The notes beneath the pieces are model-generated. The model was not told the DNA's origin and made no database searches. It worked only from the letters and a program-made list of their open reading frames with translations. From Clostridia bacterium (lineage in GTDB: Bacteria; Bacillota; Clostridia; Christensenellales; Aristaeellaceae), in NCBI GenBank assembly GCA_045599485.1, contig JAZRWA010000071.1, forward strand, positions 1 through 23,994: a stretch of 23,994 bases of DNA. Reading direction: 5' to 3'. A program made the translations under genes and the position numbers. This document shows positions 1,086 to 3,925 of this stretch, in pieces. Within the stretch, counting starts at the first letter, position 1, and each line of letters starts with the position of its first letter.

Positions 1086-1625
1086 TTAGTTTTCACCGGC
1101 CATGCGGCGGCGAAGGTCGGACAGACGGCGTTGGATGGTGTTATCCCACCGCTGACCATTCATTTCGACCATCACGCCGCCCATCAGCTTTTCGTCAATT
1201 TTTTCTGACAGTTTGACAGCCTTGCCCATGTTCATCGCGACAAGCTTCTGAAGCAGTTCACTGCGTTGAGAAGAGGTCAGAGGTTCAGCGGTGAATACGG
1301 TCGCTTCTACTATACCGTTAGCTTTATTGAAAGCATCACGGTAAGCTTCTTCACAGCCGGAAAATTCACTGATAGCGCCTCTTTCGCACAAAAGCTTGAG
1401 GAAATTCAGCAGGTAAGGCTGGATTTTGCCGCGCAGAGTGGTGTCAAGAATGCTGCAGCGTTCGTCCTTGTTGATGGACATGTTGCCAAGCAAGCGACAA
1501 TAATCGGGATTCTACTCGAACAGTGCGAGCAAATCGTGTAATTCCGATAGCACTTCAGCGCTGATTTTTTCTTCAGAACAAAGATCAAACAACGCTGTGC
1601 CATATTCCTTTGCCAATTCTGTCAC
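1086..1625 (-). CDS. atpH: F1Fo ATP synthase subunit delta (OSCP), 179 codons including one in-frame TAG at 1512..1514
   Basis: The track shows only 1086..1493 (135 aa). The same frame read upstream gives GTG(1625..1623)-TELAKEYGTALFDLCSEEKISAEVLSELHDLLALFE-TAG-NPDYCRLLGNMSINKDERCS.... This restores the normal delta-subunit length. The GTG overlaps the atpF stop (GTGA). Terminal stop is TAA. Confidence 0.85.
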
Positions 1626-2131
1626 TGTGCGTCACCAACATTCTTGATGAAGTCATTTACAAAGGCCTCGTGATCTTCTTTTTTGATCTCACGACCCATG
1701 ACTTCTGAGGCGATCTCTACGGCAATGCCGGCAATTTCACTGCGTACATCCTGCAGCATCTGCGCTTTTTCGGTGAGGACTTCCTCCTGCGCCTTCTGCT
1801 TGATGCGAGCGGCGGTCATAGAAGCTTCCTGTAGCATGATCTCACTCTTGTGCTGGGCAGTTTGCGTCGCATTGTGTACGATGCTGTCTGCCTCTTCACG
1901 AGCATGAGCCAGATTGGCTTCAAAAGTCTGCTTCATTCCGACGGCTTCTTCCCGATTCTTTTGAGCCTCGTCATAAATCTTGTCAACTTCATTGCGGCGT
2001 TGCGCAAGAATGTTTTTGACCGGCTTGAACAGGAAACGCTTGAGAATGAAGAACATGACCACAAGGTTAAGCAGAGCAATGATGATCTGCCAGATATTTA
2101 CCGATATAACTTCCAGAGCCTGTAGTTGCAT
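1622..2131 (-). CDS. atpF: F1Fo ATP synthase subunit b
   Basis: 169 aa with an N-terminal TM helix (IWQIIIALLNLVVMFFIL) followed by a long charged coiled-coil. RBS GGAAGGTGA lies upstream. Position between atpE and atpH fits. Stop is TGA. Confidence 0.88.
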   Translation of the reverse strand: MQLQALEVISVNIWQIIIALLNLVVMFFILKRFLFKPVKNILAQRRNEVDKIYDEAQKNREEAVGMKQTFEANLAHAREEADSIVHNATQTAQHKSEIMLQEASMTAARIKQKAQEEVLTEKAQMLQDVRSEIAGIAVEIASEVMGREIKKEDHEAFVNDFIKNVGDAQ

Positions 2132-2172
2132 ATTTTCACCTTCCGTGTACCGGCGTCAGCTATGATTTATAA

Positions 2173-2472
2173 TCACAGCTTGCCAAGCGTCTTGAGGGTG
2201 TTGGTCAGAGTGCTTACCAGCAGGTTGGGAGCAACGAAGATGAGCAGGATGGCAATAACCAGAGCGTAAAGACCGGTAGTCTCAGCAACGGCGCAGCCCA
2301 TCAGCATGGTCGTGGTTACTTTACCCTGGCATTCAGGCTGACGGCCGATGGCTTCGCAAGCCTTGGCAACAGCGTTGCCTTCACCAATACCGGGGCCGAT
2401 ACCGGCGATCATGGCACAACCCGCACCTAGAGCACAGCAACCGAGGATGATACCGATAGCAAGTTCCAACAT
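2173..2472 (-). CDS. atpE: F1Fo ATP synthase subunit c (proteolipid)
   Basis: [80 protein letters not shown] chose the start at ATG 2472..2470, 7 nt after GGAGG. The track start at 2487 overlaps that RBS. Stop is TGA. Confidence 0.9.
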
Positions 2473-2505
2473 TTGTTTAACCTCCAATCGTTATTCGTGA
2501 AAGAT

Positions 2506-3402
2506 TCAGGCGCGGACGGCTTTGCGCTGTTTGCGCTTCGCCTGACGTGCCTCATAGGCTTCCTACGGGAAGCCGTTTGCAATGTACAGCATCGTCAGCA
2601 TGGCAAAGATGAATGCTTGCAGACAACCGCTGAACAAATCGAAGTAAAGAGACAGGACTGCAGGAAGACCTACTTGCAGCGTGTACTGTCCAAACACACC
2701 CGGCAGCCAGCCGAGGATGGTTTGTGTCAAACCCTGCAACGCGGAGGCAATCAGTGTCGAGATGACAACGCCGCTCAACACATTGCCGTAGTGACGGAAT
2801 GCCATGGAGATGGGCGTTGCAATTTCGCTGATGACATTAAATGGAGCAAACACAGGAATCGGATCGGCGAACCCTTTGATGTAACTCCACAGACCGCCTT
2901 TCAGCTTGTAGTAGGTGATCAGGATGAAAACCAGAATCGCCCAGCCGGCAACAATGTTGATATCCGAGGTGGCCGGATGAAGGCCTACCAGACTGGAGAG
3001 GCTGGACAACGCACTCAACGCCATGATTGCTGCGACAAACGGCGCAAAGCCTTCAGCAAAACGCTCGCCCATATTGGACTGAACAAAGCTTTGCGCCTTT
3101 TCAACCACAAATTCGGCGATAATCTGTCGCTTGGAATCGGGGATTACTTTCAGACCGTGCGTGAAAAACAAACACAAGCCTAAAGTGGAGATGGTGACAA
3201 TGAGCGAGTTGACTTGAGATTCGGTTATCGGCAGATCCTGCACAGGCATGGGAATTGTAAAGTAAATGAGCGAACCTGTGACGGTGATGCCGTCATGCGG
3301 AGGTTCCGTCATTGCTTTTAGAATCATTCCCAAAATGAAAGGCACAATGATCATCAATATCAGCAGGATATCAACAACGCGTGCTTTCGTTTTTGCGTTC
3401 AA
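2506..3402 (-). CDS. atpB: F1Fo ATP synthase subunit a, read through the in-frame TAG at 2563..2565 (under the standard code it would end at 2563)
   Basis: Polytopic protein with the conserved a-subunit Arg region (ISMAFRHYGNVLSG). The track ORF stops at TAG. The frame then continues EAYEARQAKRKQRKAVRA to TGA (2508..2506), 33 nt before the atpE ATG. The start is uncertain: TTG 3402..3400 lies 10 nt after GGGAGG, while the track start at 3486 would overlap atpI. Confidence 0.72.
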
Positions 3403-3454
3403 TGTGCATTGACCTCCCTTTTCCAGAATAGGAAGCGAGAATAGAACGAGGGTA

Positions 3455-3925
3455 TCAGCCCTTTGTTCGGAGACTGATGATGGCAATCACGATACGGGGG
3501 AAGAGCAGCGGGAGAATACCGGCCAGGCTATCAAAGCAAGGCAATTGAACGGCAATGATAGCCGCGACGGCGACCAAAATCAAACGCGCAATATAGGAAC
3601 GCTGCATTTGCTCTTTGGATTCTTTGATTTCGGGAATGTCAACACTGCCTGTGTCGATCTGCTGCGCGCTCTCTTCGCTCTAACCGGAATTTTCCGATTC
3701 ATTAGAGATACGAACACCGTTCATACGTCTGCTGGCTTTTTGAACAGAAAGTCCCAACAGAAAGAAATTGAGAACAGCAATGGATGAACCCCAAAGTGCA
3801 CCAAGAAGAACAGTGATGTCGAACCTTTTAAGCAGAAGAAATACCGCAAGCATTAGTGCGGACAACACTCCGGTCCCGGCTGCGATTCGCAGTGTTTCTT
3901 TTTTTACTGTTTCATCAATCTGCAC
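3455..3925 (-). CDS. atpI: ATP synthase protein I-like small membrane protein, 156 codons including an in-frame TAG at 3680..3682
   Basis: GTG start at 3925, 9 nt after AGGAGG. The track ORF (81 aa, two TM helices) stops at TAG. The same frame continues SEESAQQIDTGSVDIPEIKESKEQMQRSYIARLILVAVAAIIAVQLPCFDSLAGILPLLFPRIVIAIISLRTKG (two more TM helices) to TGA 3457..3455. First gene of the atp operon. Confidence 0.65.

Follow-up and report, generated by a model that had tools for sequence, protein, structure and literature searches.

All genetic code changes known in bacteria reassign UGA, as stated by Shulgina and Eddy (PMC8629427), and reviews and screens published up to 2026 list bacterial reassignments of this codon only (PMC8629427; PMC13462651; bioRxiv 10.64898/2026.05.24.727570). 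UGA is read as Trp (code 4) in Mycoplasmatales, insect endosymbionts, and some Eggerthellaceae and as Gly (code 25) in Gracilibacteria and Absconditabacteria (PMC8629427; PMC13462651). UAG has acquired a meaning in other systems: Gln in crAss-like and Lak phages of the gut (code 15) (bioRxiv 10.1101/2021.08.26.457843; 10.1101/2022.01.06.475225), pyrrolysine genome-wide in archaea, according to the citation of Kivenson et al. (2025) in a recent preprint (bioRxiv 10.64898/2026.05.24.727570), and, together with UAA (the pair being written UAR), Glu in the eukaryote Blastocrithidia nonstop (PMC12153298). In the engineered Escherichia coli strain C321.deltaA, all UAG codons were removed and release factor 1 (RF1) was deleted, and the bacterium is viable with UAG as a sense codon (PMC6207430). 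Our full-text literature searches found no bacterial UAG reassignment. Here, we analyze TAG codons that lie in frame in the ATP synthase (atp) operon and in other genes of an uncultured Clostridia lineage, represented by a contig of 23,994 nucleotides (nt) (JAZRWA010000071.1 of assembly GCA_045599485.1). The entire contig, without flanking DNA, is referred to as the window.

As judged from sequence comparisons, the TAGs are best accounted for by a bacterial stop codon reassignment, from UAG to Glu. In the lineage of this contig, UAG is probably an ordinary sense codon across the whole clade, and the amino acid that it specifies is most probably Glu. With somewhat less assurance, we think it likely that a deep, possibly family-level clade of gut and rumen Clostridia reads UAG as Glu and terminates translation at UAA and UGA only; we found no published description of such a bacterial code.

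In-frame TAG codons in the ATP synthase operon

The atp operon, located on the minus strand, has the gene order atpI-B-E-F-H-A, and atpA is incomplete at the end of the contig. Its genes are as follows.

1-999, minus strand: atpA (F1 alpha), first 333 codons, the remainder lost at the contig end; free of TAG in this part
1086-1625, minus strand: atpH (F1 delta/OSCP), 179 codons with a GTG start; TAG at 1512-1514, codon 38
1622-2131, minus strand: atpF (Fo subunit b), free of TAG; stop codon TGA
2173-2472, minus strand: atpE (Fo subunit c), free of TAG; stop codon TGA
2506-3402, minus strand: atpB (Fo subunit a), 298 codons with a TTG start; TAG at 2563-2565, codon 280
3455-3925, minus strand: atpI (ATP synthase protein I), 156 codons; TAG at 3680-3682, codon 82

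For comparison, relatives were collected at several distances. The nearest species representatives are Clostridia metagenome-assembled genomes (MAGs) from ruminant guts (76% and 72% for IleS), followed by a broader set of Christensenellales-like MAGs (approximately 65%). A metagenome scan with AtpB yielded 80 atp loci at 60 to 72% identity. Close relatives, at approximately 87% nucleotide identity, were the loci L161, L164, and L174 (Logan SRR27361835) and L162 (ENA ERZ27247129), to which protein searches and exact look-ups added short contigs from additional runs. An earlier note on this DNA, made from its letters alone, had looked to Oscillospiraceae and Ruminococcaceae as kin. This placement was not upheld, as the closest genomes, Clostridia MAGs of the Christensenellales-like type, do not belong to those families in the strict sense.

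The same note had argued that AtpH must be translated through its TAG, and the homologues agree. The read-through protein matched the Pfam OSCP profile over positions 1 to 172 of 172 (E = 8e-40), and solved delta/OSCP chains in the PDB aligned to its residues 3 to 175, across the TAG. Fifty-eight homologous loci could be aligned across the site, where they encode Glu (28), Asp (14), Ala (11), Gln (4), or Lys (1). The proposed coupling of the atpH start to the atpF stop was visible as a GTGA overlap at 1622-1625, and the same 4-nt overlap is present in L174. In this close relative atpH is uninterrupted, with CAA at codon 38, and its product of 179 residues is 93% identical to the read-through AtpH of the window. 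The possibility of a naturally short delta subunit, which had been raised earlier, found no counterpart in the relatives, whose subunits are not short.

In atpI, the TAG falls into a variable acidic loop between two pairs of transmembrane (TM) helices. Hydropathy analysis gave four TM-like segments, two before it (residues 11 to 61) and two after it (residues 108 to 154), and a single continuous AtpI protein spans both halves in 71 relatives. Against the Pfam profile ATP-synt_I, the read-through protein scored 31.3 bits, above the cutoff of 25.1, which the N-terminal half alone (22.2 bits) did not reach. Translation through this TAG, also argued for earlier, is supported. The codon is common to L161, whose atpI appears in public gene calls as two products, of 81 and 50 amino acids (aa).

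The TAG in atpB is followed by an 18-codon basic tail and a TGA at 2506-2508. Subunit a chains in the PDB match AtpB, and this case was initially open because the solved chains end shortly after the last helix, stopping a few residues past it. The earlier note had likewise left it ambiguous and had suggested looking for the tail in relatives. They do carry the basic tail (in L122, for example, it reads ISNGFPEEAYEAR...), and in 78 of them the position of codon 280 is mostly Glu (48) or Gln (14), followed by Ala (9). In L161, codon 280 is CAG, and an alignment of all 298 residues of AtpB gives 97% identity to the window, the tail being kept to the same end. By this alignment evidence, atpB has a sense codon at its TAG and does encode the tail. 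Taken together, the comparisons support the reading of the TAGs in atpH, atpB, and atpI as sense codons. Full-length delta (OSCP), a (with the tail of the clade), and I subunits are encoded in canonical order only if TAG is a sense codon.

TAG codons across the contig and its relatives

In the window, 22 genes comprising 7,537 codons were defined, 20 of which are complete. An all-versus-all tblastn search of TAG-bearing open reading frames (ORFs) was swamped by conserved noncoding frames, and frames set by homology and GC content at third codon positions (GC3) took its place. Comparison of ORF lengths with and without each stop codon across loci was uninformative due to the long spurious ORFs of high-GC relatives. 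The census returned 14 in-frame TAGs, distributed over 10 of the 22 genes, and not a single in-frame TAA or TGA. Complete genes end in TAA (11) or TGA (9) and never in TAG. The three positions reported earlier for the atp genes were correct; the implied restriction to the atp operon did not stand, as TAGs occur contig-wide and clade-wide. By one-step mutational opportunity, TAG would account for approximately 43% of random nonsense codons (1,053 of 2,441), and the probability that all 14 are TAG is P ~8e-6. Ordinary pseudogenes and random errors are therefore ruled out. The remaining 11 TAGs are located in the following genes.

3965-4594, minus strand: upp (uracil phosphoribosyltransferase); TAG at 4532-4534, codon 21
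6081-7799, plus strand: SpoIID-like gene with a C-terminal SH3 domain; TAGs at 6696-6698, 6795-6797, and 7233-7235, codons 206, 239, and 385
9720-10577, minus strand: S-adenosylmethionine-dependent methyltransferase (Methyltrans_SAM); TAG at 9789-9791, codon 263
13997-15205, minus strand: membrane glycosyltransferase-like (GT-like) gene, no Pfam match; TAG at 14558-14560, codon 216
16092-16997, minus strand: ybeY and cdd in one continuous frame; TAG at 16335-16337
16990-19431, minus strand: seven-transmembrane (7TM) receptor with an HD hydrolase domain (YqfF-like); TAGs at 18703-18705, 17434-17436, and 17236-17238, codons 243, 666, and 732
19428-20333, minus strand: phoH; TAG at 20265-20267, codon 23

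All TAG-bearing genes of the window have full-length homologues. In cdd, TAG occupies the position of the catalytic Glu of the CAE motif: cytidine deaminases in the PDB read NCAERTA, and the window reads NCA#RTA, with # denoting TAG. This TAG is common to L164. In the methyltransferase, codon 263 corresponds to Glu in 21 of 21 relatives, and its TAG recurs in L161. For phoH codon 23, eight close relatives from different samples have Glu (GAA in six, GAG in two); the solved PhoH structure in the PDB leaves this N-terminal site uncovered. At upp codon 21, four PDB chains have Asp, Asp, Asp, and Glu, the relatives have Asp (13) or Gln (1), and L161 has GAG. The YqfF-like protein matched the Pfam families 7TMR-HDED, 7TM-7TMR_HD, and HD, and among 120 homologues site 243 is occupied by Glu (64) or Gln (40) and site 666 by Glu (78) or Asp (29), with site 732 being variable. 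Its TAGs at codons 243 and 666 are common to L164. The SpoIID-like protein matched Pfam SpoIID and SH3_3 and has full-length homologues of 574 aa; L161 has CAG, GAG, and TAG at codons 206, 239, and 385, respectively. Homologues of the GT-like protein, approximately 400 aa long, align over residues 9 to 398, and codon 216 lies in a variable loop and is not informative.

Two further features of these genes may be mentioned. With approximately 301 codons, ybeY-cdd appears to encode a YbeY-cytidine deaminase fusion, without dgkA in between, and the public gene call for L164 is a 220-aa product with both the YbeY and the deaminase domains, cut at the TAG. No match was found in the window at Rfam gathering thresholds; a T-box leader was recognized 5' of ileS at 13755-13945 on the minus strand (RF00230, 89.8 bits, E = 2e-20; gathering score, 93). 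Since this leader lies upstream, the start of ileS was assigned to the ATG at 13708 and not to 13804.

Altogether, six TAGs of the window are common to the close relatives L161 and L164. Identical TAG positions were also recovered from independent samples, namely, YqfF codon 84 in SRR27361835, SRR18398425, and SRR21150928 and TilS codon 16 in SRR27361835 and ERZ27247129 (L162). The highest density was seen in tilS of L164 (1356-2689, minus strand), with five in-frame TAGs in approximately 444 codons; yqfF of the same locus also contains five. In segments that follow a gene's first TAG, synonymous changes make up 78% of the codon differences from close relatives and amino acid identity is 91%; the corresponding figures for segments elsewhere are 85% and 94%. 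This substitution pattern shows that purifying selection persists downstream of the TAGs, which lie inside intact, conserved genes. In public databases, with L161 (5365-5470), L164, and L174 as the loci concerned, products of this lineage are split or truncated as a result of code 11 gene calling: the GT-like protein P0361 has 215 aa, the SpoIID protein P0001 has 380 aa, AtpG is in three pieces, and AtpD is in two.

In a neighbor-joining tree of concatenated AtpB, E, F, H, and A, calculated without support values, the window formed a clade with L106, L122, and L137. In-frame TAGs are present in the atp genes of the window and of two deeper members of this clade, L106 and L122, which makes three lineages out of four. 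The more distant locus L123 (JGI sample Ga0255059, position 1284) has TAG in atpB at a site where other relatives mostly have Glu. Its counterpart L121, from the sister sample Ga0255061, is identical across the aligned stretch and has CAG at this site. The L123 codon could be a polymorphism, an error, or a mark of another TAG-sense lineage.

Amino acid assignment and alternative readings

The amino acid specified by TAG was called by a Codetta-like sum of alignment column log-odds for each residue. The sums for the 14 sites of the window were 12.7 for Glu and 1.2 for Gln. When all 23 sites were included, Glu reached +23.8 and Gln, the second best residue, -0.4, which is more than 20 log units behind. 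Several sites outside the window are highly conserved: TAG replaces an invariant Glu of AtpA in L106, a residue of AtpG (codon 280, L122) that is Glu in 32 of 32 homologues, one of AtpC (codon 136, L122) that is Glu in 11 of 12, and one of the GT-like protein (codon 261, L164) that is Glu in 73 of 78. More mixed columns were found at YqfF codon 84 (TAG in L164, L165, and L166; 87 Glu and 23 Gln) and at AtpD codon 199 (TAG in L174; 23 Glu and 8 Gln). Where the window and its close relatives have TAG on one side only (13 differences), the other side has a codon for Glu in seven cases, for Gln in three, and for Thr, Lys, and Tyr in one case each. The alignment columns show Glu to be the best-fitting residue expected at TAG sites. 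If TAG specifies Glu, the change from CAG to TAG is a Gln-to-Glu exchange brought about by one transition.

For this assignment, the ribosome would read through every in-frame TAG in atpH, atpB, atpI, and the seven other genes and insert Glu, giving rise to full-length proteins, with termination presumably confined to UAA and UGA. The decoder of UAG would be a Glu-charged tRNA with the anticodon CUA; its simplest origin would be a tRNA-Glu(CUC) with a C36-to-A change. RF1, the sole factor that recognizes UAG, would have been lost or changed, and RF2 would cover UAA and UGA. Such a reassignment could have taken the codon capture route, which fits the rarity of TAG as a stop codon across the whole surrounding group, a possible precondition. 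The genes gltX and glnS, encoding the Glu and Gln tRNA synthetases (GluRS and GlnRS), are adjacent in the window (20815-23985, minus strand) and point to a direct GlnRS route, which is relevant to the question of which enzyme would charge a CUA tRNA. An RF1-type gene (motif VVECQDERSQ) was seen only in L138 (274-690) and L143 (236-652), both on the minus strand and outside the clade, approximately 9.5 kb upstream of atpB; it does not occur in the matching stretch of L106 or the window.

Several observations weigh against a reassignment to Glu. All of the sequences are metagenome assemblies. No tRNA genes were found in the window, and no tRNA with the anticodon CUA was found in approximately 175 loci. 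The RF1/RF2 motif search of all loci detected no prfA in the window or in the loci of recoded relatives. In the GluRS of the window, Arg is retained at the site that corresponds to the C36-reading Arg358 of the Thermus thermophilus enzyme, and an adaptation to A36 is not apparent. That none of the 20 complete genes ends in TAG carries little weight, since such stops are rare in relatives: orthologues of the window genes in the group represented by atp loci L081 to L160 use TAG for 23 of 441 stops (5%). Finally, 3 of the 13 differences between TAG and sense codons involve Gln codons, including atpH codon 38 (CAA in L174), and Gln is second commonest in several columns, for example, at YqfF codon 243 (40 of 120) and SpoIID codon 385 (27 of 35).

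The last two points lead to the strongest competitor, which we nevertheless regard as unlikely: TAG could be a sense codon for Gln, as in code 15 gut phages and supE-type suppressors, or be ambiguous between Glu and Gln via a CUA tRNA charged by both GluRS and GlnRS. CAG or CAA stands opposite the TAGs of the window at atpB codon 280, SpoIID codon 206, and atpH codon 38 in close relatives, TAG and CAG are a single transition apart, and GlnRS as well as GluRS is encoded on the contig. In E. coli, GlnRS tends to charge tRNAs that carry a CUA anticodon. However, the three Gln codon differences are all at variable positions, and decoding as Gln would convert the catalytic Glu of cytidine deaminase into Gln and place Gln at invariant or nearly invariant Glu positions of the methyltransferase, AtpA, AtpG, and the GT-like protein. 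The summed log-odds and the ratio of 7 Glu to 3 Gln codons opposite TAG, including GAA/TAG pairs that require two mutational steps, also speak for Glu.

A standard code with RF1 present, in which a suppressor tRNA or leaky termination makes TAG both stop and sense, is considerably less probable still. The SpoIID gene of L161 ends in GAA AAG TAG TAA TAA, which could be read as a TAG stop with backups, and an RF1 gene does occur near the atp operon in L138 and L143, outside the clade. Partial read-through is nonetheless hard to reconcile with the spread of TAG over 10 of 22 genes, some of them essential, and with its presence at a catalytic residue. There are up to five TAGs per gene, as in tilS and yqfF of L164, and under competing termination each would reduce the output of full-length protein by a further factor. 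Moreover, no gene of the window ends in TAG, and TAG positions turn over between close strains in the manner of ordinary codons.

We attach hardly any probability to untranslated TAGs, whether they be ascribed to pseudogenization, to errors in sequencing or assembly, or to chimerism of the MAG. The contig does come from a MAG, and the difference between L123 and L121 in atpB resembles an error or a polymorphism. Against this, the interruptions are TAG only, with no in-frame TAA or TGA and no frameshift, a bias with the low P value given above. They recur at identical positions in independent assemblies with purifying selection downstream, and they affect an essential operon and essential enzymes. 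Pyrrolysine, as in pyrrolysine-using Firmicutes and in archaea with genome-wide UAG-to-pyrrolysine decoding, is equally remote. It is the only natural decoding of UAG known in prokaryotic cells, and pyl genes could sit elsewhere in the genome; yet TAG is found at a catalytic Glu, an invariant Glu, or acidic positions, and no pyl or methylamine methyltransferase genes were found among the window ORFs, part of which were scanned with Pfam. A phage-type code 15 was rejected, as Gln scored far below Glu and the contig carries cellular housekeeping genes.

Implications and comparison with known codes

If correct, the assignment of UAG to Glu would mean that a cellular prokaryote has, for the first time on record, naturally reassigned UAG to a standard amino acid, and it would break the pattern by which bacterial reassignments affect UGA only. 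It would imply a natural loss or respecification of RF1 and, hence, that RF1 is dispensable in nature, as it is in engineered E. coli, and it would supply a natural Glu-inserting amber suppressor pair. A clade with rare TAG stops, in which lineages contain few or many TAG sense codons, would offer a test case for the codon capture and ambiguous intermediate models. Public gene calls for the lineage are wrong, with AtpI, SpoIID, YqfF, Cdd, AtpG, and AtpD split or truncated, which distorts estimates of completeness and metabolic predictions. Since phages that have recoded TAG abound in these habitats, such hosts could also matter for the code compatibility of phage and host.

One close parallel is with the bacterial UGA codes. 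Here as there, a stop codon would have been converted, lineage-wide and in a cellular bacterium, into a codon for a standard amino acid, and the change is recognized because conserved genes contain that stop in frame. The mechanism to be expected is likewise the same: a tRNA whose anticodon pairs with the codon, together with the loss of the codon-specific release factor. In contrast to those codes, the codon is UAG, the amino acid would be Glu, and RF1 instead of RF2 is expected to be lost. Moreover, the genome, with a GC content of 50%, is not AT-rich or visibly reduced.

With the code 15 phages, the lineage shares sense UAG in gut and rumen ecosystems and the splitting of genes by standard gene callers. 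Those phages encode their own suppressor tRNAs and insert Gln, whereas the TAGs described here lie on a contig of cellular housekeeping genes (the atp operon, ileS, gltX, glnS, and era) and are best read as Glu. Decoding of UAG as Glu would be shared with Blastocrithidia and with the peritrich ciliates, in which UAR is read as Glu. These are nuclear codes that involve eRF1 and in which UAA was reassigned, too; in the window, UAA is the most used stop codon (11 of 20). Similarly to the archaeal UAG-to-pyrrolysine code, UAG would be a sense codon genome-wide in a prokaryote and hard to spot from coding density. Unlike that code, with its noncanonical amino acid and dedicated pyl machinery, the sites in this clade call for Glu. 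Finally, whereas C321.deltaA is a synthetic strain, the clade described here would be its natural counterpart.

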